From the NCBI GenBank assembly GCA_964016885.1, contig OZ024740.1:218860001-218924000 (forward strand): 64,000 bases of DNA, given 5' to 3'. This DNA comes from Eledone cirrhosa. Its lineage: Eukaryota. The position numbers and the translations under genes were made by a program. This document shows, piece by piece, positions 1,026 to 64,000 of the stretch (its first letter is position 1; each line of letters begins with the position of its first letter). Below the pieces are notes generated by a model. It was not told where the DNA came from. It made no database searches and saw only the letters and a list, made by a program, of their open reading frames with translations.

Positions 1026-2393
1026 TCTTATTACATCATCTCTCCATCGAAGGTGAAGCATTCATTTTGCTTTTTCTAATGGCTAGAATATGTGATTTGC
1101 TACACCTGCATACTTGTAAATTTCTCTGCTAACTGGAGCAATTGTGCCAACCCATTGTTGAATTAATAGTTGATCATCTACAAAGCCACTGGTGTTTATA
1201 CCACCAAGGTCATCTAATTAAACTGATGATGTCACATGAACTACTGCTTATTATGAGACAAGCAGGATTTTTATCGAGGCTTATTCCTTTAAATCCAATC
1301 TGTTCTGCTAGACTATCCTATGATAGCCATATCAGATGCACCTCGTGTAGGATATATGACTTTTCACCATACAGGTCAATCTTCAAACTGAGAGAGGCAA
1401 GGTGCTCAGCATGGATAAACATATCTTGTGCGTCATCAGTTGAATAGACACTGGGACACACGGGGATGCCACAAATTACCTCCAGTACCAACCAGTGAAA
1501 TCTGCTACAGTTGTGCATACTTTTAAATTAACGTATACATATTTACACACCACACAATATATAGATATGTACACATTATTGGATGGTCATTGATTCCCAT
1601 GAGTTCCTCCGCCCTTTCTTAGGTTTTGTTTTTCATCCTGCAAAGTGTCCAAAATCAACCTGCTCACCAAGCCAACCGGGTAGGGTTGCTGGTTTAGTCA
1701 CCAACGACCCAATGATGTGACATGTTGTACTGGGTTATATGTTACCAGTAGTACTCAAGAGTGACCTGACTGTGTGTGTGTGTAATGTAAGGTGTGGATG
1801 GCAGTAATACACACACACACACACACATGTAGTACTGCTGCCCACACTAATCAAATCCAATGAATACCATACCACAACTGAATGTAAACTGGCAACACCA
1901 TAAGTATATATAATGCTGCTCACAGATATCTACATTCATTAGAGAATCCACAAGTCTGATGAGCTATCAATTCTAGAGTCTGGTGTGATCACTAACAATT
2001 GTACCTTGAGCTGATCGATTGTGAAAAGCATAATGATGCTATGTTGATACTTCGTTCCTGCTCCTTATTATTTATTATATGTATATACCCCCCCCCCCCC
2101 CCTCACACACACACGGTAGTGAATGTGTGCATGTATGTGTACATGTACACATTTACATATATGGTGATATGCCTTAGTAAATAACCCAGATAACTATAAT
2201 ATATATATATATATGTGTGTGTGTGTTGACTTGAATATATGCATTTATATTTTTAGCTAATATTTATATTTGGCCTAGTTAGAAATATTGTCATTTCAAG
2301 CTAACATAGTTGCTATACTGTGGAGGATATTGTAAAAACATACAAGTTGACATTTCATTTTTTTTAAACACTTGAGAGATAACTTTAGCCAAA

Positions 2394-17295: not shown

Positions 17296-20200
17296 TGATG
17301 AGGTATCAAATTTTCATTAAGTTTATTCAGGTGTGATGTGCAATTCGTGATTGATCAGCTCAAGGTTTGAATCTCTATTCTAGAGTCTGGCCTGATAGCA
17401 GAGATTGAATCTTGAGCTGGTTAATTGCGAAACGCATGTCACACCTGAATAAACTTAAGGAAAATCTGACGCCCTCGTCCATACGGTGGATTGGCAGTAT
17501 CGGTAGAGGGTCGGACGCCATGCTTTACAGCATAGTTACGTCCCTTTACAATCTGAGTTCAAATCCCGCCGAGGTTGACTTTGCCTTTCATCCTTACGGG
17601 GTCGATAAAATAAAGTACCAGTAGTGCACTGGGTAATTGCTGGCCTTGTGCCTAAAGTAGAAACAATTAATATTACACTCTGCTTAATACAACCCTGAAG
17701 TGCCTACTGGAGACTACGCATCGAGTGGTGCTCAGTTTGGTAAACCAACAGTAACTTGACGTTACAATCCCTAAATTTTATATATATATATATATAATAT
17801 ATATAATTTTAGATGTAGTGATACACCAATTGAGAATGGAAATGTGAATTGTTTGGTGGATGAGGGGAGTATCATTCAGAAAGAGAAATACAAACAATGC
17901 TGTGTAGAGAATAATGGGAATAGAATCAGTGATGGATGTTGTGAAAGGAAATAGAATGAGATGACTAGGTCATGTGTTGAGGAAGGATGAAAATGACCAG
18001 GTGAGAGGAGTAGTTGAACTGAAATGTTGAGGGGGGGGGGGGGGGAGATCAAGAAAGACATGACTAAAAATGATGGGAATGGAAATGAAAGCAAAGGGGC
18101 TGGTGATGGGCAAGAGGCCAAAATGGAGAAGCTTGTTTGCAAGGTTAACTTTTGCTTTAGCAGGGAAAATGGACTTAATACACTTGTATTATTATTATCT
18201 AATTTTTACTTGTAATATTTCAGGCTGGAATGAATTGCTAATTGCTGGTTTTTCTCATCGCTCTATACCTGTCAAAGATGGTATCTTGTTAGCCACTGGC
18301 ATTCATGTTCATCGAAGCAGTGCACACCATGCTGGTGTAGGTACTATTTTTGACAGAGTTCTTTCTGAACTGGTTGCTAAAATGAGGGAAATGAAGATGG
18401 ACAAATCAGAATTAGGATGTTTACGGGCAATTGTGCTCTTCAACCCTGGTAAGCTAATTAACATTTTTGTAATCATATTTCTCATGAAAGACACCGTTGA
18501 GAATTTTTCAAATAATTTTTTAAGCAATCAAAAATTTGTGGATTAAAATATGGGACTTAATAATAATGAAATTATTGTGTACAGTGCTCAGGTGCACTAC
18601 AACTCATCAAAGGTGCATGTATAGTACATAGAATAATGTACAAATGTCAGGAAAATGAACAGTGTATGAGTCATGATATAATAACAATAACAATAATGAA
18701 ATATTGTGTACAGTGCCCAGGTGCACCACAACTCATCAAAAAAGTGCATGTACAGTACATAGGGCAATGCACAAACATCAGTAAAATGAACAGTGCACGA
18801 GTCATGATACACACGTGTGCATGTGTATGGAAGGGGTACATCAGGTGTAGTTTTGGCGTATTTCGGGAAGCATGAGTGTCTTAAAGGATGCAGTGTCTCG
18901 GCAGCTAACAATTGACGCAGGCAGTTTGTTCCATGCTTCAGCAACTCTGAGCGTGAAAAAATGTCTGCGAAAGTCATGGGAGTTGTGCTGTTTTCTTATC
19001 TTGTAGGCATGTCCACATGTGTTAGACACATGGAGATCAAAGAGGCGCTCAGGGTTGCAGTTGGCGAGATGGTTAAAAACTTTGTGGGTATTCACCAAGT
19101 CCATTGCCAGACGTCGGAGCTTCAATGAATCCATGCCCAGGGAAGCAAGGCGTTCAGAGTATGGTAGGTGTCTGATGGAGGGTATGCGCTTGGTTGCACA
19201 TCTCTGAACAGTTTCCAGGAGGTCAATGTTCCGAGCAAGATAGGGGTTCCAGACTGATGATGCGAATTCCAAGTGTGGTCGCACCATAGCTGTATACAGT
19301 TTTAAATAGATGGCTGGAGAGCGGCTAACAAAGGTCCTGCTGAGTGATGCCAAGACACCCTCGGCCTTCTTGACAATTTTAGAGACATGCTTTGTCCAAC
19401 GCAAATCGTTGCTGACAGTAATGCCCAGGTCACGTTCACAAGAGGACTTTTTGATGTCAGTGTTGTGGAGGGAGTATGTGGACGCTGGATTTTTCCTTCC
19501 AAAATGCATGGTGGTACACTTGTCCACAGCCAGCTTCAGTTGCCAGTCTGTGATCCATTGCTGCATTGTGTCCAGGTCTGATTGTAGGAAAGAGTTGTAA
19601 ATTTCAGGATCAGTCCTTTTGATTTCAAGGTACAGCTTGATGTCATCTGTATATTTTAGTACCGTGGCATTCTGTAAGTTGGCATCTATGTCATTAATAT
19701 ATGCCACAAACAAAAGAGGACTTGTTTGGATGTAGTCTTTGATTTTCTGATGAGGTCATATCATAACATACCGTGAATTATCTCCCCTACTTAAAATATA
19801 ACAAAATAAATAGAAATAAAAGCTTTCGACGAAGAAATTTTAGTCTGATAGTGGGGTTTAGAACCCTCTAAGAAATGGAAAAAAGATGAGTATTGACGTA
19901 CATGGGAGCCGAACCCACATCTTTGGTTATCAAAATAATATTAATTAATGACGAAAATATTACCTTTTGATGTACCTTGCACTAAATATGTCAACTTGTC
20001 TATTGTTTTTCATGTAGATGATGTCTGTCTGTTCTCTTCTAAATAATTCTTTCTATTTCTACAGCAACTAATATATGAACATTCTTGTTCATTGAATGCC
20101 CATCACAACTCTGGAGTTGTCTCCCCTACTTAAGCGAAATAATTAAAATACCAGCATGACTAGAAGTTCCATGATTTATATTTTTCTATTTAAAGGGCGG

Positions 20201-47500: not shown

Positions 47501-50500
47501 TGAGGTTAATAATAATAATAATATAAGAAAGCTAGTGGTAATAACAGTCACTAACCTTGAACTGGAAAAACTCGGCCATAAACTTCTACAACTCTACAAT
47601 TGCCAAAGTATTCACAGAACAGGGTTACATCTACAGTAGCAGACATAAGAACAACACGTAATTCACTATATGTTGCTAACATATCCCGGAGTAACACCAA
47701 TAAAAAGTCAGTCTGAAATTTTATAGGAAAAGAAAGAAAAAGATAAATGACTGAACGAAAACAGTCAAGATGAACTTATAAAAAACAAATTCGAATAATG
47801 CTGTCTTAATATAATTTATACAGATATCATTGATAGTAGGGATAAATGGACTTTAAATGATGAATCTTCAATATACATTAAATAAATTCTAGAGGATGAT
47901 GGGATTAGAGTGCGATGATGACTGAAAGGAAATGGAATAAGATGGTTAGGTTATGTATTGAGGAAGGATGAAAGGATTGGGTGAGAGGAATGCTGGAAAT
48001 GAATGTGGACATAATTAGAGGAAGGGGAAGACCAAGTAAGACATGATTAAAAATGATGGAAGAAGAAATGAAAACCAAGAGGTTGGTAAGGGGAGATGCA
48101 GATAACAGGCCAACATGAGGCCCAGAAGCCAACCTCTGCTTTAGCAAGAAAAATGACTTTAAAATGATTTCTATTGTACACATTAAAATTTGACCAGTTA
48201 AAATAGAACAACAATAAAAGAAAAACAATGTTGGGAGGTGAGGGATTCTTAATGGATAAAAATATATTATTTAATAAAACAGTAAGAAATATGTATTTCA
48301 AAACTTACATTAATGTCTCTTTCATGGATTTCATCAACAATTACATGAGAAACACCACGCAAGCCGTTCTCTAACCGTCGTAATAAAGTTCCTAAAGACA
48401 AAGATACAATATAGATCAATTTAATAAAGAACAAGTTGAACATGAATAGAGAATGTGTGAGAATTATGTTATGGACAAAACAGTCATAACTTTAAAATAA
48501 CAGCATTTTTCTCATTAAAAAAGTTTGAAAAACAAGAAAAACTATTTTGTTGAGACACATACCTAACGTACAGTAGAGAATAGCTGCATAGGGTCGAGGT
48601 AGAACACTTTCAAATCTGACACTGTAGCCAGTACTCAGCCCCAAGTTCTCATTCCTTTCCATAGCGACCCTTTCGGCGATGGATACGGCACTGATTCTTC
48701 TAGGCTGAACAAAGACAACAATACTTGAGTAAAGAAACCGTTACTCAGTAAATAACTATGAAACTATTAATAACTATTCCATTATAGAACAGAAATCCTT
48801 TTGTTACCAACCCAACTGAAATCATACTTAATTTAAGTACAAAACTCCTGATAATAAATAAATTGTAATTAAGTTAAAACCCCACCATAATTTTATATAA
48901 AGCCCTTTTTGTTATGTTCCAAACACCTCCCAAATAATGATGAAATTAATTATTTTACTAAATCTTTCCAAATTTTTGTTTATATGCACTCAAATTCAAT
49001 AATTTACCTTATATAGAAATATTTAAATGGAATTTTTTTTTTGTTACATTTTATGAAATTTATCTGAGAACCTTTTGTGTTAGAAGGAGCATGTTCATAT
49101 ATCAAACTAAAAAGTTATAGTTGTTTTAAAAAATCAGTTTAAATTCTTTCAAAATTTCGTTAGAAATATAGTAACAAAAGGGCTAAACATATAAATAATT
49201 CTTTACCTATTACTTAACAAAATGACAAACCAACTTTTAAATATTTAAAGAGCCTTTACCTGAGTCACAATTATATTACAGTCAGCACCCTTGCCTTCTG
49301 CAACCATGCCGTCCAAAATAAACTGAGGGACCTAAGAAAAACATTAAATTAATATCAGATTAATTGCTAATACTCATAAAAGTTAACTAAAGTACAATAG
49401 AAAGTATGAAAAACTTTCTCAACGACAAAGTTATCATATGTACAATGTCTGTTTTACTAAAGATGTTTCTTCATTTAGAGAGATTATTGAAATTCTATGG
49501 TGGTGATTTAAATCTTCAGAATGATTCCAGTTAGTTGAGAAATGAAAGGCAACCATTTGGTAATTATGACCCCTAACCTAGTTGGAAGAGAGGGTTCTAA
49601 CTTCCTCCTTCAAGATTCTCTTTCAATCAAGCTACTTTTTACATAAGTAGATGGACTGTTAATCCATATTAGACATTTTCTATAGCATTTTGGTCAGAAC
49701 TAGGCCTAGTTAAGCAAAATAATAACTTCCCTAGTGTCGGTGTCATAATAAAATGAACCTAGTATACTCTGTAAAAAGGTTGGTGTTAGGAGGGATATAG
49801 TCATAGAAACCATGCCAAAACTAAAATGTGAGACCTGACCGTCTAGGATAGTTGCTCTGACTTGGTCTTTAATGAACCATCCAAGCAATGCCAGTATGGA
49901 AAAGCAGATGACTATGATAATGATAAATCATCTTACACTATTCCATTTAGGATATGTTCAAAGTAGTTAGGGTACCTTTACAGTGATTCAGTGTTATTTT
50001 TGTCTTTCATTCAGGCCTGTTGGTTTTCATTGTCTATATAAGTAAAGGTATTTGTTTGAATATGCTCATCAACTGCATGAAGTATGTGCACTTCCTTCTT
50101 TGGTTTATATATTGTTATTTCATATTAACTATTCCAACATTTGAGAAGATTTCATAACTAAAACCATAATACTGCTTTTAGTTCTATGATAGAAAATGGA
50201 ATGCTATCATAATTTTATGTTAGATGTTGGGTTTCTACCATCTCTCAATGTTTGTCCATTAGGTCTCACTTCTGATAATCTTGTGGTTGCTAAGAATAGA
50301 AATGGGATGATTGGGTCAAGTGTTCAGGAAAGATAAAAGTGATTGCGTGTGGAGAGTAATGGAAATGTATGTGGAAGGAGGTAGACTAAAAACAACATGG
50401 CTAAAGATGGAGGTAGACTAAAAACAACATGGCTAAAGATGGAGGACAAGGTGTGTGTAGAGGGGGTGGAGCAGAAGATATGGCAAAATAGAGAAGAATG

Positions 50501-53500
50501 TCAAGGAGTCTGTAAAGCTAATCCCTGCTTTAACAGGGAGAATGGTCTTAAAACACTTGTAGGAACATATAAATCAACATATCAGAAACAGGAGAGCAGA
50601 TTCACTTACCTGTGTTGTTTTACCGCATCCAGTTTCTCCTCTTATGAGAACAACCGGGGAAGTTTTGATAACGTGTACAATATGATCTCGAGATTGATTG
50701 ATAGGTAATTTGCTTCGATCATGGAGCATCTGAAGATAGCAACATTAATGATGCTTCAAACTACAATATTTTCTTTTCATACAGCATGCAAACATTACAT
50801 GTACAACTGTTACAAAGAAGTGTGGTGGATATGAAATAAAATAGGACAGAAAAGTTCAAATACTACACTTAACAATGACATATTCCGGAGTCCTAATTCT
50901 GCTTGAATTGCTTCTTTTTCTTCGATAAAGATCATCACTTTGCTTGCTGTAGGCAATGGACAAACAAGTATCGTTACCACTCACTCCACAATAGAGTAGC
51001 CACCATAATAAGAAAGGGATTTGCAGTAATTAAATCTAAGTCAACTTCATAAAAATGTACATGAATTTAAAATTTAGTTCAAAGAAAATGTATTCACCAA
51101 CATTATAACATAGTTCTTTTACTGTTTAGTCTGAGAGGGAAAGGCAGTGTTTATGTCTCTTTCCAAAGCCTCAAAGAATGGTCGGACAAAGGTATTGTAG
51201 CAGGAGTTGCCTCCCTTGTGACACACACATCCCCAATAGATTAACGCCCTCTAGACAGGAAGAAGAACCCTTTCTGTAACTTCCGGTCAGAACCCTATAA
51301 AACTAACAACTTTAAGTTCTCTCTCTCTCATTCGCCCTTCCGGTGCCTGGCCTTCACCAGGCGTCTTCTGCCAGCCGCGTTCGCCTGGCAATCAAACGGT
51401 AACTAATAACTTTGCTTCATCCTTTCATCTATGACATGTCAACTATACTGTTCTATATATCCACAAATTGTTAATTAAATATTATACACACAAACCAATC
51501 GTCTTTGTTATATCCATACACTCCAGTATTTTGTTATAGTATCCTTGAATTGGAGACCTAGCGCCTGTATGCAACAGTATGGACCTCAATAAAGGCACCC
51601 AAGGACCAGTTAGTGGTGTTAAAAGTGGATGAGAGATTTAATCTCAGCATGCAGAGAAGCAGAACAAATACAATAACCGCATCTCTTATGACGTTAAAAT
51701 GCCACTAATTCACCGCCCTGGATTGATACTTTATTTTATCGATGTTGAAAAGTTAAAAAGCAGGTAAAGCTGACCTTCGTGGGATTTGAATTCAAATGCA
51801 GAAAGAGATACAAAGACAATTGCAACAAATCATTTTGTCTTATGCTTTAACAACTCTCCACCTTTATATCCAACATTAACTCAATGGCAATAAAAATAAA
51901 AAAAGCATTAACATAAACTAACAAATACAACTAAACAATGTGACTTACAGCCTGAAGATCTCTATCATTGGCTCTCTGTTCTTCTAGTGACCGGTACACA
52001 TCCTGACTGATTTGTTCCATTGAAGCCTGGATAATAATAATAATAATTTCTAAAAATAATAAAACCATAATTTCTCAACACAATACAGAAATTTTACACA
52101 TTACTTCTTTCAGTTACTTCCATCTCTCCAATATATATTATTTTTAATAAACGTATGTTACACACATGATAAAACTGTTTTACTCACATGAGCCAAAGGA
52201 CCTTCATCAATGTTGCAATTTGTCCAAGGATTCCAGTTGGGTTGTGGTGGACACCAAGAAACCACACCTGGTTGAGGACGTTTAGGTGCAGGAACAAATT
52301 CATCCAGTTGAGTATGAGTTACTAGTGAGAATGGCTCCGGAGGACTCTCAGCAGGCTTTAAAATGAAGAAACATTTTATTCAAATGTCGTGGAGTGGTTA
52401 AGGGGAAAAATGTACTACAAAGATATAAATCAACTTCAAATATTGCTAAATTTCTAACTTACTATTTGAATAGGTTCAATATTCCATGCTTGCAGGGCTT
52501 CATCCAGACTAGTTTCCAGTTCAGGACTGATGGAAACTTCAAATGGTGGTATCTGTAAATGGTATTATATGAAAACAGAATTAGTAGAAATATGTATGTA
52601 AAAAGTAAACAGAAATAACAAAGCAAATGATACAGTACAATGAAAATTATATTTGTTTAACACTTGAAATAATAGGAAAATAGTCTTAACGTTTCGGACA
52701 CTATTCCTTCAACAGAAGATAGAATGAGAAATAAAATAATGAAATAGAAAGTTAGAGTGAGAAGAGGGAGGAAGGAAAAAAAAACAAAAAACCTCGTGCA
52801 TATTCAGACAGCCATTTGTAGAAATTCCTATCTTCACCACCAATTTTAAGTTAACTTTCCTGGCATAAGTTGGATGTGATGTTTGGAGACAGGATTCTAT
52901 GGCTGGAAGCTCTTCCTGGCGCTAACCCTTGAGGGTTTTTTTAATTTTTTAAGTAAGGAATATATTTTCACCTGTCTAACTGCCAAGCAGCAGGATATCC
53001 ATTTATGTGGAATATGAACAAATATCACTGCTTGTGGTCTTCAATGTGAATAGAAGAGAAGGGAGAAAGACAATGGAGGGTAGAGAGAACACTTCAGTGA
53101 GGCCAAGGATATGACAACCTCTCTACTGCTGGTGCCACGATAAAATGGTTGGTACTAGGAAGTACATCTAGCTGTAGAAACCACACCAAAATATGGAATC
53201 TATGGGGAAAACATATCTTGACTCAGACCAAAGACGATCCATTCAACTCATACCAATATGGAAAGTGAACTTTCAGTCAAATAAGATGGGTACTTATTTC
53301 TTACTAAATTGAGGAAAGATTCCTGCCTCGCAGGCACACTTGACATCAACCTGCACTGTAATGTGGACGTGTTGATATCACAACAAAAAGCACTCAGCAC
53401 ACAGTGGAAAATGGACATTAAATGATGATAATGATGAAAATTACAAATTTTCAAGTGTTACTATATAAATTAAAACTTTTCCACAAAATTATTACTAATT

Positions 53501-54386
53501 GCATTTAGACAGCAAATTAGCAGTCATTAAAATGTATGACAAAATGCCTTATAGTATTTGTTCATGTTATTTGCACTCTTAGTTCAAATCCTGCTGAGGT
53601 CAACTTCTCTTTTCATCCTTTCAGGGTTGGATTGGGTTGGAAAATAAAATCCAAATCCAGAGTGGTTAGTTGGCAGAATTGTTAGTGTTGGCCAATATGG
53701 TTTGCAGCATGCTCTGGCTTTTTGAATTCTGAGTTCAAATCTCTGTTATGACCTAAAGGAGTGACTGACTTAATCACACTACCACCTGGTCCATGGATAG
53801 CTTTAGCGAAGTCGAATCTCATACAATTTTTCAAACCAGGTGTTTAGTTTGAGGATATGTCTTCCTTCCATGATTAAACTATATATATATATAACTCCCA
53901 AGACTGTCCCACAAATATAAGACTTCATTCAGAACATACCTTATCAGCATCTTTCTTCTTCTTTAAACCGGTATAAGCTTCAATAACATTCATATGATAG
54001 AGTTGACGCACCAAAGATAAAGCACATGATTTAGAAGCCACTTGTTTATTTGAACCATGCTCTCGCGATGATACATCTGAGAGGAGGAGAAAGAGAAACT
54101 CAAATAAAAAACTTAATATAAAGTAGTCAGATATAAGAATCTTTGAATGCCATCACAAATATTTCCTTTGGTTTCTTCTGCAGCAAACATGGTTGCCACA
54201 CAATTTAATTGTTTGAACAATTTCAGTTGTTATTTTGCAGAAGGTATATGACGTCTCAACCTACAAAGCAGGAAAATAGGTAACACACACACACACACAT
54301 TAATAAAGGATACATTTCAAACTATTTGAAAACACTTACGCTTCCCAATAGACTTGACATAGATTTTCATCTCAGCAATGAAACTC
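32150..54386 (-). CDS. DHX9: ATP-dependent RNA helicase A (DHX9 / maleless ortholog), 25 exons, 5'-partial
   Basis: 25 GT-AG exons splice in frame (3109 nt): dsRBD2 (SFIAEM...[23 protein letters not shown]), MTAD-like [15 protein letters not shown], motif [11 protein letters not shown], Ia [41 protein letters not shown]2, OB-fold, RGG tail. Confidence 0.97.
32470..32795. repeat. Minisatellite, ~23-28 bp unit (CACTCACACTACATG[GA]ACAGTTGC[TA]), about 13 copies
   Basis: Direct tandem units without unique spacers, immediately upstream (in transcript sense) of the last DHX9 acceptor. Confidence 0.9.
34062..34259 (-). CDS. DHX9: DHX9 exon
   Basis: [31 protein letters not shown]...; 198 nt. Confidence 0.94.
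35135..35250 (-). CDS. DHX9: DHX9 exon, OB-fold
   Basis: [38 protein letters not shown](W); 116 nt. Confidence 0.95.
35348..35548 (-). mobile_element. tRNA-derived SINE family 1
   Basis: Reverse complement of the family consensus (GTACTTTATTTTATCGACCCCGTAAGGATGAAAGGCAAAG...GATTTGAACTC). Confidence 0.86.
36703..36870 (-). CDS. DHX9: DHX9 exon, OB-fold
   Basis: [39 protein letters not shown]...[10 protein letters not shown]; 168 nt. Confidence 0.95.
37301..37526. mobile_element. piggyBac-type MITE family A
   Basis: TTAACCCTTT...GCTAAAGGGTTAA, internal similarity to other copies. Confidence 0.85.
37838..38025 (+). mobile_element. tRNA-derived SINE family 1
   Basis: Near-identical to 17484-17670. 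Confidence 0.88.
38394..38497. mobile_element. Tiny TA-flanked foldback element/MITE
   Basis: Perfect 28-bp inverted repeat TAGAAGTGGTTACACAACAGTTAGTTCA / TGAACTAACTGTTGTGTAACCACTTCTA. Confidence 0.7.
38561..39001 (+). mobile_element. tRNA-derived SINE family 2 with RTE-type 3' tail (partial copy 43838-44101)
   Basis: Head TGGCTTAGTGGTTAGAGC...GAGTTCAATTC, core TCCTTGAGCAAGACACTTTATTTCACATTGCTCCAG, tail GGTGTTAGGAAGGGCATCCAGC...ACCCATGC...GACGTAAAAC(GAT)n shared with the RTE LINEs. Confidence 0.85.
39020..39536 (+). mobile_element. Internally deleted Tc1/mariner element
   Basis: ~32-bp TIRs (GGATGGGTAGAAAGAAACTCTCTATTGAAAATT / AATTTTAAATAGGGAGTTTCTTTCCACCCACC) in TA context; transposase C-terminus [30 protein letters not shown]...VEF*. 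Confidence 0.88.
39935..40355 (-). mobile_element. Old internal fragment of an RTE-like LINE ORF (EN-RT linker)
   Basis: Minus-strand peptides [12 protein letters not shown]...[12 protein letters not shown] and [14 protein letters not shown] with stops. Confidence 0.55.
40571..40669 (-). CDS. DHX9: DHX9 exon
   Basis: [33 protein letters not shown]; 99 nt. Confidence 0.94.
42071..42155 (-). CDS. DHX9: DHX9 exon
   Basis: [28 protein letters not shown]; 85 nt. Confidence 0.93.
42252..42416 (-). CDS. DHX9: DHX9 exon, HA2
   Basis: [18 protein letters not shown]...[18 protein letters not shown]; 165 nt. Confidence 0.94.
43065..43220. mobile_element. Short degenerate mariner-like MITE
   Basis: Imperfect terminal inverted repeats GCTAAGAAGTTCATAGGCTGAC / GTTAGCCTATAAATTCGTCAGC. 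Confidence 0.45.
43385..43496 (-). CDS. DHX9: DHX9 exon, HA2
   Basis: [37 protein letters not shown]; 112 nt. Confidence 0.95.
43610..43770 (-). CDS. DHX9: DHX9 exon
   Basis: [27 protein letters not shown]...[16 protein letters not shown]; 161 nt. Confidence 0.95.
44430..44582 (-). CDS. DHX9: DHX9 exon, motif VI
   Basis: [50 protein letters not shown]; 153 nt. Confidence 0.96.
44682..44755 (-). CDS. DHX9: DHX9 exon, motif V
   Basis: [24 protein letters not shown]; 74 nt. Confidence 0.95.
45096..45190 (-). CDS. DHX9: DHX9 exon
   Basis: [32 protein letters not shown]; 95 nt. Confidence 0.95.
45614..45728 (-). CDS. DHX9: DHX9 exon, motif IV
   Basis: [38 protein letters not shown]; 115 nt. 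Confidence 0.95.
46201..46299 (-). CDS. DHX9: DHX9 exon
   Basis: [33 protein letters not shown]; 99 nt. Confidence 0.93.
46951..47057 (-). CDS. DHX9: DHX9 exon
   Basis: [22 protein letters not shown]...[10 protein letters not shown]; 107 nt. Confidence 0.93.
47305..47498 (-). mobile_element. tRNA-derived SINE family 1, with target-site duplication
   Basis: Reverse-complement copy flanked by repeated CCTTTGAGGTTAATAAT (~47295 and ~47498); inserted in an older SINE fragment. Confidence 0.85.
47556..47712 (-). CDS. DHX9: DHX9 exon, motif III (SAT)
   Basis: [11 protein letters not shown]...VVLMSATVD...YGRVFPVQ; 157 nt. Confidence 0.95.
48309..48391 (-). CDS. DHX9: DHX9 exon, DEIH motif II
   Basis: [28 protein letters not shown]; 83 nt. 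Confidence 0.95.
48563..48704 (-). CDS. DHX9: DHX9 exon, motif Ia/Ib
   Basis: [47 protein letters not shown]; 142 nt. Confidence 0.95.
49260..49331 (-). CDS. DHX9: DHX9 exon
   Basis: [24 protein letters not shown]; 72 nt. Confidence 0.94.
50610..50729 (-). CDS. DHX9: DHX9 exon, Walker A
   Basis: [10 protein letters not shown]...[15 protein letters not shown]; 120 nt. Confidence 0.95.
51949..52026 (-). CDS. DHX9: DHX9 exon
   Basis: [26 protein letters not shown]; 78 nt. Confidence 0.9.
52188..52355 (-). CDS. DHX9: DHX9 exon (MTAD region)
   Basis: ...[28 protein letters not shown]; 168 nt. Confidence 0.93.
52463..52552 (-). CDS. DHX9: DHX9 exon (linker)
   Basis: [30 protein letters not shown]; 90 nt, phase 0-0. 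Confidence 0.88.
53940..54076 (-). CDS. DHX9: DHX9 exon, dsRBD2 helix 2
   Basis: [46 protein letters not shown]; AG/GT bounded. Confidence 0.95.
54340..54386 (-). CDS. DHX9: DHX9 exon, dsRBD2 ([15 protein letters not shown]), 47 nt
   Basis: tgtag|G AGT TTC...AAG C|gtaagt on minus strand; phase 2 to 1. Confidence 0.92.
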
Positions 54387-57300
54387 CTACAAAAAATAAG
54401 AAAAAAGAAAACAAAAATGAAAAATAACAATCAATGTTGATAAAAAGTGCAATCATTTTTCCAAGAATGAAAATTTATGTTTCAAGATCAATGAAAGTAA
54501 GAATGCAAAAAAAGACAAAAAAAAAAAAAAAAAAGTAAGGATTCCCCCAAAACACAAACACACACACATCAAAATGAATGATGCATTGTTTTTAATGAAA
54601 TGTTTAATTTGTTTTCATTTGTAAATTTGAAAAAAGAAAAAAGTTCATAATACTGACTTTTTAACCCTTTTAATACCGAGCCACCTAAAACTGTCCATTT
54701 TAAAGTATTTTATTCAAATTTAAGCCGGCTCTCAAAATTATACATAAGAATCTTAACAGCAGCTTTATAAAGGAGAAATTGGTTATTTCATTTTACTAAA
54801 TTCCTCTAAATTCTTAATTGAAACATGGACAATATATTCCAATAGAAATACAATAAATAAAAGGCTAATAATATAAAGTTGGTATATACTGGCATTGAAA
54901 GTTGTATAGATCAATAAACTTAGGTTCCGCTTCATAGGATCACAAATTCTACCTTCTCCCTCCTATGACAAGATTAAGTAGTGAAATAGTCTGGGGTTGA
55001 AATTTAACCCTTCCACATTCAAACATCACTTGGATAATCTACTAGACCAATTCACAGTAGCACAGCAGATGCTCTCTGCAATATCAAACTTTTCCATTCA
55101 GCAAATACCAAACAAAATGATATAATTTTCAGCAAAAACAAGATTATTTTGCAATAAATATTTGCTACTTCATTATTAATCCCTCTAATATTCTATTGTT
55201 CTGATTTAGAGAGCCATGTCACACAAAACATCTCTAGGTCAAGTATTTTAATGACACATTAAACAGCAAAATATTTCCGCTGACCAATCCTTGTCTATAA
55301 ATAGACAGCTATATTGAATAGTTAGGGAGAAAACTCCTCCTGGAGTAAATAGCATTTATTGCCCCTGATACTAACGCCTGAACATACATAGATCAGTAAA
55401 CCCTGCTTAAGACAAACACAATCAAATATGAGTACTATGAAAGTAAATACTGTCTTGAATCTATCAAGTGACTGAATAATAAGTAGATGCTTTGGTAAAA
55501 GGACAAATATACCATAGTAAAACAGAGATACTTCCCATATATTTTAATGTAATATGAAAACTTGATCAATAAAACTGTCATTAGAAGAAGATAACAGAAA
55601 TATAAAGACAAATATTAAATATAAAAAAAAAAAAATAGAAAACTTTATGGTAATATTAAACATTATCATCTGACTAATGTTATGTAATTGGCATATTTGC
55701 ACTTTGAAATTTTTTGTAAAGTATTATACGGAGTTGCTACTGGTAGATAGTATCAGCGATGAAAAGACAAATGGTAACATTGTTTCCTTGGTCCAATTTG
55801 ATGAGTTCCACCGCACTCAGTAAGCAAATGAGGTCTGGGATCTTGTCGATCAAACTCTATATCTATACTAACATGGACAAAAGGAAATAAGGAAAGGAGC
55901 TGATGTGATCTTTCTATTTTTGATACTATCTGCCGGTTTCGACTCCTTGTAGAAGGAGCAACATGAAATAAAATATTTTGTCGCCGTTTCGGAATGAAAC
56001 CAACAAGCTTATGACTGTGAATCTAACACTAGGCTTCATTCTTCCTATCTGATTGAAATTGAATGTATATGAAAGCTTGAGATGACAATAACAGTAGGTT
56101 TAAATGATATTAGTGAAATTCCTAATTTCAACAGATGTAACTGGAGAAAAAGATCTTTCATTTGTTATCTAATGAGATTAGAAACTCTTTCCATAGCTAA
56201 CTTTCAATCTAATGACAAAGTAAGATATCCACTGAGCAACTGTTATAATTAAACTGAAATAAAGTAAGGCCATGCCTAACTCAACTGACTTGCTAATACA
56301 TGGCACCTGAGGCACAGAAATAACAAATTAAATATAAAAACTTCATAACTAACTTCTTAATGGCTAATTCTTCAAAATTAACAAAGAATTTTGGACAAGT
56401 TCCAAACCAAAGATATTGAAATTAATGCTTATAAAATAAATATTTGAATAGACCAAATCTCATGTGTTCAGTTAATGTCACTATATAACTAACTACTATT
56501 ATTCAGCTTCATTAGTGGTAGTAAATAATTAAAAATACCTACTTAAAAATATAAAGCAGTCACCAAAATCGATTACAACTCCTAGACTTTACAATTATCA
56601 AAACCAGTAACTATTCAATTACCAAACTAATTTTACAACACTTAACAATACAAAATTACTAAAAATCAACTAAAACGTACTTCAAGTAAATTGATTTTTA
56701 TTGTAATAAGAATTAATGTTATGATAAACCTTCTCATCATGACCATTGACATACATTCATAATTAATTCTATTTTCCTCTGCTACAAAGGGATGATCAAG
56801 TTATTAGAGAATGGAAGTGAGAAGGCGATATAGAGGAAGAATCAACCCAAGTACTAGACTGATAAAAATAAAAAAAAAAGTACCAATCTTTGACTGTGAC
56901 AGAACTCAAGAGCAGTGTCGGAACAAATACTGCAGAGCATTCTATCTGATGATCGAACGACTTTAACAATTCACTGCCTATAACTTTGTATTATACCTAA
57001 TGCCAACTATATCTAGAGTACCTAAGTTTAGATTAATGTGTACTTTCCTTATTTAGTGTGCTATGTCTAACTGATTAAGTGATCATGTAGAAGTTCCCCT
57101 TTCTGGTATTAAGTAAAATATGTCTTTATTTGATATAAGCTGTGAAGCTGAATAGTTGTGATTACACAAGGTATATTTATTTAAGATGTTTGTGAACTTA
57201 AAAGAATTTGATATAACAAGGCAACTAATGTTCAAGATGTTTTAATTTTTGTGTATGCATCAGTATGTATAAATCAGCCAAAACCTGATTTTAGATTGCC

Positions 57301-57634
57301 GTTTTAGTGGAGAAACCTGCTGTTGGGAGACTGTATGTGTGTATGAGTAATGTACTGAACTGTACAACATGCATGCATTCAGAGCTTTTTAGAGATGCAG
57401 TACAGAACCAAATGACTTAACTTTTAACAGTTAAAAAAAATAAATTCAGCTATGATAGATTTATATGGGAACAGATCAAAACTATTCTGCAAAGATCTTT
57501 GTCAACAGACAGACAATCATAATCTAATAACAATGAACTTTTTAACATGGAGAATGAGGCAGTAAATCTTCTTACAATTTGTTAAGATAAGAATTTGTAA
57601 GTCTGAACAAAAACCATGTTCATACCATTGTATT

Positions 57635-58915
57635 CATCATCATCATCATCATCATCGTTTAACGTCCGTGTTCCATGCTTGCATGGGTTTGGACGGAGGG
57701 TTTTCCCACTTGAGGCAAGAGTGGTTATCTTGCTCGCATAGGACTATCTGGCGTGTTTTCTACAGCTGGATGCCCTTCCTAACACCAACCACATTTACAG
57801 TGTGGGGCTGGGAGGTTTTTACCGTGTTGCCTACACGGCCACATTACAGCGTGAACTGTGTGTTTTTTTGACGTGACACCTACACGATCTCATTTGTTTC
57901 GGCCTGGATGTTGTGGCACCAACATAACTTTACATTGAAAGGGGCGGTGTGGATGGGGTGGGGGTGGTGGGACGGGGGTGTATTTTGTTAGAGATGCCTA
58001 CTGACTGTAGTAGGTTTTACTTTGTATTTAGGTAAGGCGGGTCTTTATTACTGAGTACCGCCAAAGGTCTCGGTCCAGTGACATTGTCTTGGTGAGGTGT
58101 AAGTGTGTGAGGTCGGAATTTATCAGCTCGTCCCAGGTTTTTCTGGGTCTGCCTATTCCGTGGCTACCGTCTATCTTTATTGCCCTGCACTTTGTTATAC
58201 AGCTATCGTCCTTCATGCGCATCACGTGACCATACCAACGTAGCCTTCTCTCGAGTAAACAACATCTGATCCCTCTTATTTCTAATTTTTTCCTTAGTTC
58301 GTTTATGCTTTGCCGTTCACGTATATTACTATTACACATCCAGCGGAGCATGCAAGCTTCGTTTCTCTCTAGTCTGCGTATATCCTCTGCACACAATGCC
58401 CAGGTCTCACTGCCGTGCAACATTGCTGTTCGTATGCAGGCATCGTACAACCTGCCTTTCATTTTTAGGGAGAACCCTTTAGCGGCTAATAGTGGTATGA
58501 GCTCTCTGAACTTTTTCCACCCAGTTCTGACTCTAGCTACTGTACTTTCAGAGCACCCTCCCCCACTGCTGATTTTGTCACCCAGGTAACGGAAGCTGTC
58601 CACTATTTCTATAGAACCCTCTGCGCAGTTGAAAGAGCTAGTATTTTTTGGGCACTTGCTGCTACTTATTGCCCCAGAACACCGGCCACATGTAAAATCT
58701 ATGTTCTTAGTTAGCTTACCTGTGATCCCACTACATCTTTTATGGACCCAAACTTTGCATTTGGGACACAAAATGGAGTTTCTACCTACGCCTTTCCTAC
58801 ACTCTGAGCATGGCCACTTCCCGGAGGGGACCGCCGCCTTATTTTCTTTCTTACAAACTATAACTTTAGTCTTAGCCAGGTTAATTTTAAGGCCTTTTGA
58901 TTCTAGGCCGTGCTT

Positions 58916-58918
<3 letters not shown>
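57635..58918 (-). mobile_element. 5'-truncated RTE-clade LINE with internal PHD-like finger
   Basis: ORF GLKINLAKTKV...C2C..C2C..H2C..C2C...DSFRYLG...MLHGSETW...RLRWYGHVMR...GRPRKTW; (GAT)n tail at 57635-57656; 5' end abuts (TA)n. Confidence 0.93.
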
Positions 58919-58959
<41 letters not shown>

Positions 58960-60262
58960 CAGAAATTAGTAAGGGAAAAAAAAAAAAAAAAGAAAAATGA
59001 TAAAAGTAAACTTTTTCCAATGTGTAAAAATAAGTTGATTTTAAGATCTAGATTGTAAGATATAGATTATAAGATCTAGATTGTGAATGCTTTTACAGAA
59101 TTTCAATTTAACGAAATTCAAAATATGAAACATTGGAAGACACTGTATGTAAGAACTATAATTTGAAAGTTATATTTTTATTCTTTCCTCTACCATAAAA
59201 AAATAAAACATCACTAAAAGATGAACATTATTTAATTAATATTTATATTTAACAAATTATTAATCTATCAACTTAGTGTTCATAAAAAAAATTTTGTTAT
59301 TTAGTGAAGTGATGTTTTCTCATAACATTCAATATTCTAATATATATTGGTTTATGTAACTAAAACCAAAACACAAACTACCACCACCAAGGCATGGGTT
59401 GGACATGGACAAACATGTATATCCATAAGTACACACACACACAATCAATCTGGTTGAGACCAACTGAATAGCCCTAAATATTTCCAGGAGTTTCTTTTGA
59501 GGAAATGAAGTAAGACTATATTAGAGACAAATGGTTTTCTTTCCCGAAAGAAAATATATTATGTTTATAATGACTTGTCATTTATTATAGGTGCCTTCGA
59601 AAAAATTTTCATGATAATGTAAAATAAGATGAAATATTAAAATTACAACCCCAAAGATCAGTTGACTATTTTTAACAATATTGGTAACAACCAGTAATAA
59701 TAACCTATAACCTACCTTCAAACTCACTTCTCACAATGCTTAACAAAAATCTTTACATTCCATCACATGCAGATATATGATATGGGAATAGAAATGATAG
59801 CTTCACTTTAAAACTCACTCTTCCAACAATTAATGTTACAAAAGCATGTTTAACAATCCAATAAATCTGTTAGTTCTGTAGTTTTTGTTAATATTTAGAT
59901 GAATCAATATCAAGTAATTTTTTTTCTTAATTTGATGAAATTAACTTAAAAAAAAAAAAGATTATGAAATCAAATTGAAAATAATTATTTCAATAAGATA
60001 TTGTGATAGATGGTTCTTTTCACACTTATCCAACTTTCATGATTTGTTAACAATAGAACATCAAAAATGTGTAGTGAAATAATAGTAAATAACTGTACTG
60101 CTGTGAAAGAACAACATTTTCAAATAGTAAGAGTTATGTCTTTCCAAAAAAGAATGTATATTAATGCATTATTATACTCTTTTCCAGCAGGTATTCTTTG
60201 TAGTCGACTACAATGCTGAAATAAAAGGGCTGCAGTGTTCTGCAGAGCAGGAAATAACTTAC

Positions 60263-60395
60263 CTGAGAAGATACAGGGCTGTCTTTAACTAGCAAGGAAG
60301 ACACGCAGTTTGGTTGCACAGCATACAAGTGCCACAATGGTTAGATTCTGTTGAGGAGGAACGAGAGGCAACGACTGCAACAACTTTATGAGTGC
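60263..60395 (-). other. DHX9: Candidate stop-containing (poison/NMD) cassette exon of DHX9
   Basis: Minus strand: ...tttgtttgtctgtcatgcagcag|GCACTCATAA...TCTTCTCAG|gtaagt; 133 nt, GC-richer than flanks, TAA in the frame imposed by the phase-2 intron. Confidence 0.5.
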
Positions 60396-62631
60396 CTGCT
60401 GCATGACAGACAAACAAATATATTAACCCTTCTAAAGCCCTTTACTGCTGAAGTGGGGGACATAAAAAATCCATCCCACTACAGCAGGAAATCGGGACAG
60501 ACAATCAGTGAAGAAGAATTGCAACTTTACCATCTTAAGTATTTAATATTCATGTATGCATATAGCACATACAAATGATAAATTGAACAATTTTTTCTTT
60601 TATCTTATATTTTCTATAGATAGAAAATTGACTAAGATAAAATTAAATTTTATGGCAAGAAATCAACTCAACAAAGAAAAACCCCAGAAGATTGCATACC
60701 AAACCCTTAAGAAATTTTTTATCTTTTAAATATTACAAAGTCATAAGCTTCTTTCATTCTAAATTATTTTATGGGAATCACTAAAAAAAAAATCTGCTTA
60801 CCAAAATATTTAAATAAATTACTTGAATAAGGACAAATATTTTTTCATAAGTTCCAAAATTTCTTCTTTTTGTGTGTGAAGTCATTTTTTGTCAGGTTAG
60901 ATCTATTACATTCTCTATGACAGAATTGGGGTTACTACCATTAAAACATGCAACAGACCTATGCTTTGGAAACATAGTGGCGAGGCAAAAATAGCTTGCA
61001 TTTACTTTTTAGGAGCTAACCCTTATTCATAGCTTTATCTAAACAAATATGTTCTGGATACTGAGAATTGATTCAAAATAACCATATGAATATTTTATCA
61101 CTAAGTGGTTCCCATGACTAATTTCAAGACATCGTAAAAGTAGCTCATATCTTTGTAAAGATTTAAAAGTTTTGAAACTTAGATTAACATTAAGAATATT
61201 AAATTATATATCTGGAAACTTCACCATGTGTAACCCCTGCAAAACGATTTTAAAGAGTAAGAAGTGCACACTTCAAATGTTTCTTTGTTGAAAGCTGTTT
61301 CTTGCAATGAAATTTTCAGGGTTTTAAACACCATGATGGTAACTTAAGTTGCATAGTAAAAGGACAAGGGTCAAACAACGACAGTATCAGACTTATTAAC
61401 AAATGAACATCCATTACCATGCGAGTGGTACCACTCACTTGGTTAATGTTTTTAGATTCCTTTGTCAATTTTTCAACAGATAATTCTTGTTTTTAGTTTG
61501 AGATGAAAATACCAAATAAGGTCAAATCCTTTTAAACAAATAGCAAACAAAGATCACAATAAATAACTAAAAAAAGGGCTATGAAAACATTAAAATTATA
61601 AAAATGGATAACATTAAGGGTAAGTAGTTAAACCACTTGCCATCCTATTATTCATGCATAGCCAATAAAACAAGCACTATTTTAATACCTGTTTTAGCTA
61701 ATACCTATAGTAGTATTTCAATTTATTTACACTGCCACAATGGTCTTTGCATGCACTATCCTATTTTGAAAAGGATACATTATAAAAATAAATAAATGAG
61801 AGCCTACTGTGAAAATCTGTTAATCACAGTGGATTCCCCCACCCTAATCCTTCCTTTATTGCTAACTAATGCTAAAAGTTAGTACTTAAGTAATTTCATT
61901 TGTTTCAAAATCAAACATTTCAAGAGATTTAATTTCCAATAATCAATTTTAAAATGAAATAAATACACAAAGATGAAAGGATGAAGTGTTATTGGAATCA
62001 TATATATATTGCTATCCTTAATATTTCAATAATATTCTTAAATAATTTTCAGCTGCGATATACATTTATTTCACTTTACAATATTCTAATTAAAATACAT
62101 ATCAAACCAAACCAAACTTTACATTTCTTGGGTAATTCTAATCCAAGTTAAATCTCATTCTAAATTCTGCTGTGGTTATATAGAATGATACTTAAAAATA
62201 CACACAAAATATTTTATAAAATTGTATACCTTTTATATGCATTCTTATTGGTTAGGTCTTTCCTTTTTCTTATATTTTTAAATGTCCTATTTTGTTTATA
62301 ATTTATAATTTCTTTAATGTTACTTTATCTTTTGGTTGGTCTACAGCTCTTTATTAATTGAGGTAACTGGAAATTTTAACCCAAGTTTTTACTACAGTAA
62401 GCAATATGTACATCAATATTTTTGTTGTATATATATGTCACCACTTTCCAATTGGCTGATGAACGAGGTGGCAATAACATCAACTTGTTTCTGGAACTTC
62501 TGTGTACCTAAGGTATATGCTAGTTTGCCATGTGTTTCACATAATATACACATACACTCACACAGTCTGTGGTGCTGAGACCACTAAACATGGGAGTACT
62601 CAATGCATGGAGAGATGCAGAGTGGGTATAG

Positions 62632-62702
62632 AAATAGGCAAAATCCCAATCGCGGCTCCAATCTGAAACCACTTGGTGCTGCGGTCGGGATTCAACCTAT
62701 TT
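62632..62702. ncRNA. Pre-miRNA-like 71-nt hairpin in DHX9 intron (unverified)
   Basis: AAATAGG-CAA-AATCCCAATCGCGGCTCCAA [11-nt loop] TTGGTGCTGCGGTCGGGATT-CAA-CCTATTT; ~30-position stem with wobble pairs and few mismatches. Confidence 0.3.
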
Positions 62703-64000
62703 ATATATATATATTTAATTACATAATAAACAACACAATATAATTATTCCATTTCCAAAGGTTTCAGGAGACTAGATGATCCTTACAGAAATGTCCAGCT
62801 CATTCATCAGATGAAATAGTGATAACTTTTTTATATTGAGTTGTTTATTATGTAATTAAATAGCTCTCTACTATACAGAGCACTCTTCTTTCCTTTACCT
62901 TTTCTATGGAAATACTTAACACACATATATATATATAAACCACCATTCTATGTTTGTTTTTCCATGCAACTGGACAGATCTCACTACTCATAACGAAAAA
63001 CAGGTGTTCAAATAATATCTCATGGTATTTGTGCTGGCAAAATTACAAAGAATTCCTTGTTACTCTAGCCAATATAAATGCAGTGAACTAGTTACTCGCT
63101 AGTTTGGAAATAAGTAACCCAATAATGCTATTTTTCATCAAACACGATAGAATAAAAAAATTACTTTATTAAAATTTATTAGTATAATTGAAAACGTGTA
63201 ATTAACAGAAAGAACATTAGACTCCAACCTTAAAATATAACAACCAGCAATGATTTATAAACCCCGATAATACAAACAGTTTGTGTTTATTTGTAAAACT
63301 TTTCAAGATCATCTACATTAAATATTGCTAATTTTAAATAGTTGATTTGAAAAAAAAAATTAAATGGTGTCATTCATTTTTTTTAACCAAATTAATTTTT
63401 AGATTTTTTAATAACCCAGCAAGGTTTTATTTAAACCTGAAGGCAATATTAAAAGCCAATTTAGCTATCTAAGAGCAACACTATATTTTATAAAAATGAA
63501 TACCTTAAGTACATACTGTTTATACAGCAGCAATAACCTGTAAGTGTATACAATGGAATTTCATTATGTTCATACATTTTAACAGGTAGATTTATTAAAG
63601 TGAATTAAAATTGTAAATAATACAACAAAATTTTATTTCCTATACTCTCTTAATTCTGTAAAGCAAGGTAATAACCTCACATTCTATACCATTTTAGTCT
63701 ATTTATTAGAAGCTAAATACAACAAATAATTATATTAACACATTACAATGGAAGGGTCAAGTATAATGAAGGTTCTACTTAGTAATAAAATGGAAATGCT
63801 AATAATAACTGGCATTGGCAGCAACAGAAGAATAAGTAGATTGCAACATTGTTTTAAAGAAAATAATACTTCTAACGGATACTTGACACTAACATAACAT
63901 TAAACACAAATATAGCACAATTATGACACTAACAATAAGTACCAGGATTTTGCCAAATTGACTGGTTTTTCCAATTCTTCCAATTTAAATCTCCAACAAT

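Follow-up and report, generated by a model that had tools for sequence, protein, structure and literature searches.

Introduction

Does an octopus carry a poison exon in the gene for RNA helicase A (DHX9), and does that exon lie at the position occupied by one in the human gene? According to the accessible parts of two reports (PMC7072589, PMC4741636), human exon 6A lies between exons 6 and 7 and contains a premature stop, and knockdown of UPF1 stabilises it. It has been described as a splicing event of human cancer cells, and a further paper, in its accessible part, only cites this human work (PMC7790302). Poison exons as a kind and the human DHX9 instance are already known; the octopus cassette adds an invertebrate case. 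A search limited to openly readable papers found none that describes a DHX9 counterpart in an invertebrate or gating by RNA structure, although genome-wide AS-NMD tables in supplements beyond its reach might include mle or rha-1. The nine AS-NMD targets that PMC8652244 gives in its Table 5 as common to human, mouse, fly and worm do not include DHX9.

The locus was raised by a first-pass annotation of the window, by which is meant the whole 64,000-nt stretch of Eledone cirrhosa DNA that was analysed (G000:C1:218860001-218924000). That annotation proposed a 133-nt exon with an early stop at 60263-60395 on the minus strand, within the intron that matches the exon 6A intron of human DHX9.

The host gene and its largest intron

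The minus strand of the window contains most of the DHX9 gene of a 3.0-Gb genome. Its exons match Octopus vulgaris RNA helicase A at mostly 84-100%, which identifies the gene as the DHX9 orthologue, and the domain set of a close relative (P0070) is consistent with this orthology. There are 30 coding exons. A junction-by-junction fit gives 29 of them; the remaining one, near 48410-48300, is missed by the junction chain and is visible in the O. vulgaris protein match. The first five coding exons are located in neighbouring stretches outside the window, and the exon upstream of the cassette is single-copy in the genome.

The host intron, at 16,384 nt, is the gene's largest and twice the size of the next (8,464 nt) among the 27 resolved junctions. 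The first-pass annotation had described it as longer than 9.6 kb and larger than any other DHX9 intron, of phase 2, bordered by a 47-nt downstream exon and followed by about 25 exons. Each of these points is borne out, with 25 coding exons counted downstream. The coordinates of the gene features, the splice sites and the related elements in other animals are collected in Table 1.

The intron also contains repeats. A very high-copy repeat with a long open frame, presumably resembling a LINE piece, occupies window positions 57473-59047, where the summed DNA depth is over 10^6 and the Pfam match is a PHD-like stretch only. Two related, short, MITE-like elements with inverted ends (window 62631-62862 and L002:3839-4018) make up the two most stable folds of the intron. 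Elsewhere in the window, the minus strand of 18844-19755 contains a reverse-transcriptase fragment (RVT_1, E 2e-10). The only other AG/GTAAGT donor of the host intron belongs to a minus-strand segment at L002:2727-2882, with a possible acceptor 156 nt upstream, and this segment is a second cassette candidate by its sequence.

Table 1. Coordinates of the octopus DHX9 cassette, its surroundings and related elements (window positions unless a locus is named)
Feature	Position	Strand	Score or basis
Host intron (coding intron 5, phase 2), total 16,384 nt	54387..64000 (window part)	-	exon fit
Coding exon 5 (upstream exon), 140 nt; last residues GPDHN-R, phase 2	L002:6910-6771 (outside window)	-	
Downstream constitutive 47-nt exon (SFIAEM), coding exon 6	54340..54386	-	sequence and exon fit
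Alternative cassette exon, 136 nt, with premature stop	60263..60398	-	X4 195-nt contig, both flanking exons joined
Acceptor AG in use, first AG of the NAGNAG, weak	60399..60400	-	RNA contig; score 1.1
Second AG of the NAGNAG (start in the first-pass annotation), same stop	60396..60397	-	sequence
Early TAA stop at codon 199, 123 nt short of the cassette's own 3' junction	60386..60388	-	translation
Donor GTAAGT after CAG, joint strongest donor of the intron	60257..60262	-	sequence, RNA contig, score
Candidate branch site TTAAT (presumed), ~25 nt before the acceptor	60422..60426	-	picked by consensus
Predicted RNA hairpin upstream of the exon, single copy (core 60487-60445)	60437..60498	-	z -4.0
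Stronger AG in the 3' arm of the hairpin; exon would start at 60447	60448..60449	-	score 5.4
Predicted conserved lophotrochozoan cassette	L011, L012, L015, L020, L024, L029, L038, L042, L043, L049, L050, L053, L057, L060, L069		
Lophotrochozoan paired blocks, example	L020 intron positions 67-107 and 1648-1726		

Inclusion and probable skipping in RNA

Four sequence runs from one study, available as assembled contigs only, cover the locus, and none of them is recorded as RNA. One of them, X4, shows four CT..AC joints at DHX9 introns over 50500-61500 and is for this reason taken as spliced RNA. The other three (X1-X3) show no such joints and are DNA; their contigs pass unbroken through 59054-61500, island included. 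Over 59100-62300, X4 consists of six pieces. Its coverage is nil at 59100-60261, a gap that carries no evidential weight.

A 195-nt X4 contig with a depth of 14.1 covers 60262-60399 and overhangs it by 28 and 29 letters; the two overhangs match the 47-nt exon and the upstream exon. The cassette is therefore 60398-60263, entered at the first AG of the NAGNAG. The flanking exons lie 10.4 kb and 5.9 kb away, and the contig ends exactly on the AG and GT. Of the junctions expected from the first-pass annotation, those from the upstream exon to 60398 and from 60263 to 54386 are both present in this contig, and entry at 60395 is not seen; nor do the X4 contigs show any use of the second AG. The GC-richer island that drew attention to the locus is real (47% GC in the cassette exon versus 31% in the host intron), but its proposed 133-nt extent gives way to an exon of 136 nt.

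The skipping form is read from a fork between contigs. The DHX9 mRNA contig of X4 (3074 nt, depth 63.3) terminates at 54387, the single G in which the upstream exon and the cassette both end. Had the fork come from unspliced intron alone, it would fall one base further out, so an end at the shared base points to the presence of the skipping form. Two full-length relatives (P0068 and P0070) join the flanking exons directly. From the fork, the skipping form appears to coexist with inclusion and to be the more abundant. Depths of 14.1 for inclusion, 63.3 for the mRNA and 2.2-5.6 for nearby intron pieces suggest inclusion in about a fifth of transcripts, a crude estimate since contig depth is a poor measure and one sample was used.

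The included form reads GPDHNR-RHS-stop (R-R-H-S-stop). The early stop was thus correctly anticipated, as was the identical stop reached by translation from the alternative acceptor.

Splice-site strength and copy number

The two ends of the cassette differ greatly in strength. By a matrix built from DHX9's own 27 resolved junctions, the acceptor in use scores lower than all 27 resolved acceptors of the gene (5.5-18.4) and ranks 161 among the 873 AGs of the host intron. The donor ties for best among 1005 GTs and is one of two with AG/GTAAGT. The NAGNAG acceptor and the CAG/GTAAGT donor that had been claimed are both present on the minus strand; the accompanying U-rich tract is poor. Within the intron, 48 of 13,844 AG-GT pairs score as well as the cassette or better. 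Sequence alone is consequently insufficient to settle the exon, and it is the RNA contig that settles it.

The island matches only itself in the genome, by a search that omits simple and very common words, and DNA depth over the cassette is at the single-copy level. Neither the repeat-family match that would have spoken against the exon nor an Rfam match nearby was found (Rfam gave five weak matches, none near the cassette exon), and an exonised repeat is rejected on these grounds.

A junction shared with human exon 6A

The position of the human exon can be read from published primers. In the supplement of PMC7072589, a junction primer gives GPDHN-R followed, in phase 2, by W, and a primer inside the exon gives WRRMRLSA. 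Truncated DHX9 proteins of mammal and bird type end in WRRMRL tails after GPDHNR. Together, these primers and proteins place exon 6A after GPDHN-R, and the human and octopus cassettes share a junction, in codon and in phase. The proposed equivalence of the two introns is thereby upheld.

Other mammal-type products read FACFIL after the junction, which is likely intron read-through. Fish and bird products also show stop or frameshift cassettes at this junction, and a fish-type locus (L048) has GT at the same position. Truncated mammal-type and teleost proteins (P0137, P0206, P0221, P0134, P0132, P0139 and P0143) share SLAEKH/QT or an apparent other frame, WQKNIQ. Compared at the sequence level, these proteins suggest that the vertebrate cassette keeps its sequence from fish to mammals, with two forms in mammals. 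No frame of the octopus intron encodes the vertebrate peptides, a weak test in that vertebrate exon DNA is represented by primers only.

The same junction in other animals

The intron itself is old, as GT occupies this phase-2 position in 59 of 74 metagenome loci, including fish-, cnidarian- and arthropod-type loci. One of the 75 loci ended too early for the count, and in L009, L041 and probably L073 the coding sequence runs on. None of the 75 is a recognisable cephalopod. The octopus intron has no blastn match among the other introns compared (about 54), and its best match to profiles of the lophotrochozoan blocks described below has an E-value of 0.28. In L034, a locus of cnidarian type, the intron is short and, judged by eye on DNA only, shows no cassette.

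Two invertebrate groups show cassettes at the junction. The first is represented by the transcript pair L016 and L025, near-identical intron-less DHX9 sequences whose protein type groups with pancrustaceans (SH-aLRT 97, quick tree). L025 has a 59-nt insert exactly at the junction (L025:756-814), which is not bounded by GT..AG and changes the reading frame, so that a stop follows in the next exon. The second group falls inside Lophotrochozoa (93) and outside the mollusc clade (99) in a quick tree that included it as L053 and L017 only.

Two conserved blocks lie in the same DHX9 intron of the lophotrochozoan group. Among the 20 loci examined, some of them near-duplicates, 16 contain a whole predicted cassette of 65-93 nt, one is cut off and three are without the pattern. 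An in-frame stop is found in 15 of the 16 cassettes, and the six with a length divisible by three are all among these; the remaining one shifts the frame. The block on the upstream side, 0.6-2.9 kb from the acceptor region, is complementary to that region in reverse orientation, and the pairing covers the acceptor and the first 35 or so bases of the cassette. The predicted helix has a free energy of -46 to -56 kcal/mol versus shuffle means of -26 to -32 and a best shuffle of -41.6; each comparison used 10 shuffles and a coarser grid. In an alignment of 14 loci, pairing holds in 466 of 518 cells and 11 two-sided changes occur at 8 of 37 pairs. Values as high arise in 1, 1 and 0 of 2000 row permutations, with the helix defined from one member and the statistics ignoring relatedness. 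A cassette with a covarying long-range helix over its acceptor is accordingly predicted from sequence in this group.

Truncated proteins offer a further view of the junction. Tails that cannot be GT read-through occur in 10 of 268 proteins: four of teleost type, two of tick type, one of oyster type, one from a spider, that of the L025 product and one that probably arises by read-through at a GC donor. The last (P0170) fits such read-through and is not counted as a cassette. Those of P0002, P0156, P0249 and P0124 (oyster-type, tick-type and spider) are further cassette candidates at the protein level. Set aside from this comparison, as indistinguishable from genomic contigs, were 42 proteins that stop at the junction and the majority of the 94 with possible read-through tails. 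The predicted octopus tail (RHS) ends none of the 268 proteins and none of the 13 matches of a short-protein search. The overlapping opposite-strand frame of the cassette had 0 matches in the search, which is uninformative on conservation.

Some loci show other features in this intron. By eye, nested inverted repeats are seen in L008 (intron positions about 533-590), L065, L072 and L076, and L008 has a possible short stop-carrying exon with its donor within one inverted-repeat arm. A conserved hairpin-like block of about 45 nt is found in L028, L033 and L058. A putative short Drosophila mle isoform was unconfirmed in literature searches and in the accessible part of PMC10332324, and was dropped.

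Predicted RNA structure near the octopus cassette

Upstream of the octopus exon, a hairpin is predicted at 60498-60437. Among non-overlapping 80-nt windows of the intron (1631 scanned) it ranks third in stability, behind two repeat-like elements. Its 3' arm contains an AG stronger than the one in use (60448..60449), for which the model gives an unpaired probability of 0.0; no use of this AG is seen in the X4 contigs, and an exon starting there would likewise lead to a stop. The presumed branch site is predicted to be mostly unpaired (0.73), and the AG in use lies outside the hairpin. A role of the hairpin in octopus splicing is a prediction of the folding model.

A long-range helix over the octopus acceptor, as in the lophotrochozoan group, was considered and rejected. 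Its duplexes (-36.1 and -39.1 kcal/mol) were chosen post hoc, and each is matched by 1 of 20 shuffles. The cassette exon alone has no unusual fold (z -0.65). A second folded stretch lies just past the donor (window 60171-60250, z -3.1, rank 15 among the 30 windows listed).

A probable poison-exon throttle on DHX9 and its alternatives

The cassette is best explained, with a probability of roughly three in four, as a genuine alternative DHX9 exon that is likely coupled to NMD and would throttle the level of DHX9, in the manner of human exon 6A. Its use at both junctions, its frame and stop, its single copy and the codon and phase shared with the human exon are direct observations. Some transcripts take up the cassette between coding exons 5 and 6, with the 3' side probably limiting, given a weak acceptor and a very strong donor, and in these a stop stands at codon 199. 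By the established NMD rules, decay is expected when a stop precedes a later junction by more than 50-55 nt. The cassette's stop exceeds this distance and precedes 25 coding exons, and UPF1 is present in the genome. The included isoform is a probable NMD target and use of the cassette may be regulated; decay of the included mRNA would then throttle the DHX9 level.

The hairpin may add a feedback loop, in which it gates the choice of 3' splice site and is opened by DHX9, itself a dsRNA helicase. For the octopus, this gating and self-opening, drawn from folding models and analogy, is somewhat unlikely. By the same analogy, self-sensing through a helix would be likelier in the lophotrochozoan group.

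Short database isoforms bear on the frame break. The Met of the 47-nt exon is the first residue of RefSeq isoform X2 of Octopus bimaculoides (P0069) and of RefSeq isoforms from the clam Mercenaria and three cartilaginous fishes. Such starts are consistent with a frame break just upstream, although intron retention, an internal start or the like could equally produce them. A further protein, P0078, begins MLKAR before SFIAEM, which may be a squid-type cassette end or a 5' exon; it was excluded from the counts.

Three other readings of the RNA contig have to be weighed. A young cryptic exon, in which a strong donor arises by chance in a long intron and the product is degraded with neither regulation nor conservation, would explain the weak acceptor, the many pseudo-exons that score equally, a host intron that is long and contains repeats, and the lack of sequence likeness to the cassettes of other animals. 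It is harder to reconcile with an inclusion depth of about a fifth of the mRNA's despite the expected decay, crude as that figure is, with the cassettes that vertebrates and two further invertebrate groups have in this very intron, and with an O. bimaculoides isoform that starts immediately after this intron. We regard it as improbable. An artefact of assembly or a chimeric contig is much more remote: the evidence is indeed one contig from one run, but that contig stops exactly at the AG and GT, joins the correct exons over 10.4 kb and 5.9 kb, and overlaps the mRNA contig by 30 letters, as expected from a 31-mer graph.

The included transcript could also escape decay and be productive, giving either a 198-residue protein with the first dsRNA-binding domain or a helicase that restarts at the Met of the 47-nt exon. 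The fairly high steady-state depth (14.1), the intact first dsrm domain (residues 5-67 of P0070) and the database isoforms starting at that Met all accord with such a product. The tails, however, vary by lineage in sequence and in length (3 to over 80 residues) while the stop or frameshift recurs, and the human counterpart is stabilised on UPF1 knockdown (PMC4741636, accessible part). A productive isoform is considered a little less probable than a cryptic exon, and a decay-coupled throttle remains the preferred explanation.

Origin and significance

The position of the cassette is common to four lineages and a recognisable sequence is common to none. A single, ancestral origin with turnover of sequence and repeated, convergent gain at a favoured intron both fit this pattern, and we lean slightly towards the single origin. 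A broader and tentative proposal, which we hold to be possible but short of an even chance, is an ancestral bilaterian feedback switch on DHX9. A stop or frameshift cassette would have been kept at the GPDHN-R junction in vertebrates, cephalopods, other lophotrochozoans and arthropods while its sequence turned over, and a helix at the 3' splice site would allow the helicase to gauge its own activity and direct its own mRNA to decay.

The octopus cassette, with its parallels in two more invertebrate lineages, may be one of the few examples in which unproductive splicing has persisted at a single position throughout the bilaterians. The covarying lophotrochozoan helix offers a direct system for the study of helicase self-sensing. 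Cephalopods are known for heavy RNA editing, which gives the dose of a dsRNA helicase extra interest in these animals.

Comparison with known systems

The closest known system is human exon 6A (NR_033302). It shares with the octopus exon the gene, the intron (after GPDHN-R, phase 2), an early stop and its nature as a cassette that is normally the minor form. The two exons differ in having no sequence likeness that could be found, and the human tail reads WRRMRLSA... where the octopus tail reads RHS. The human exon is UPF1-sensitive and controlled by polymerase speed, hnRNPM and SRSF3, according to the accessible parts of PMC4741636 and PMC7072589, whereas the octopus exon is known here by its sequence and an RNA contig.

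Persistence of unproductive splicing with turnover of the event has precedents. SRSF5 and other SR genes have unproductive splicing across phyla, with turnover (PMC4379411). In these genes and in RBM39/caper (PMC8652244), as far as the accessible parts of both papers go, stop-carrying splicing is kept across phyla, often without sequence conservation, and the exact event turns over. Those genes encode splicing factors, unlike DHX9.

For the structural element, the nearest likeness is the plant DEAD motif of DRH1/RH14 and RH46, for which the accessible part of PMC12218528 puts forward, as a hypothesis, a helicase that opens the helix over its own 3' splice site. The lophotrochozoan loci share with it an RNA helicase gene, a predicted helix over an unproductive 3' splice site and a proposed self-opening. 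The plant genes encode DEAD-box helicases and use an alternative acceptor in a local hairpin, whereas DHX9 is a DExH helicase with a cassette exon. In the octopus, moreover, the AG in use lies beyond the hairpin, which is known from one sequence. The plant motif is a loose match to the octopus hairpin and a close match to the lophotrochozoan helix.
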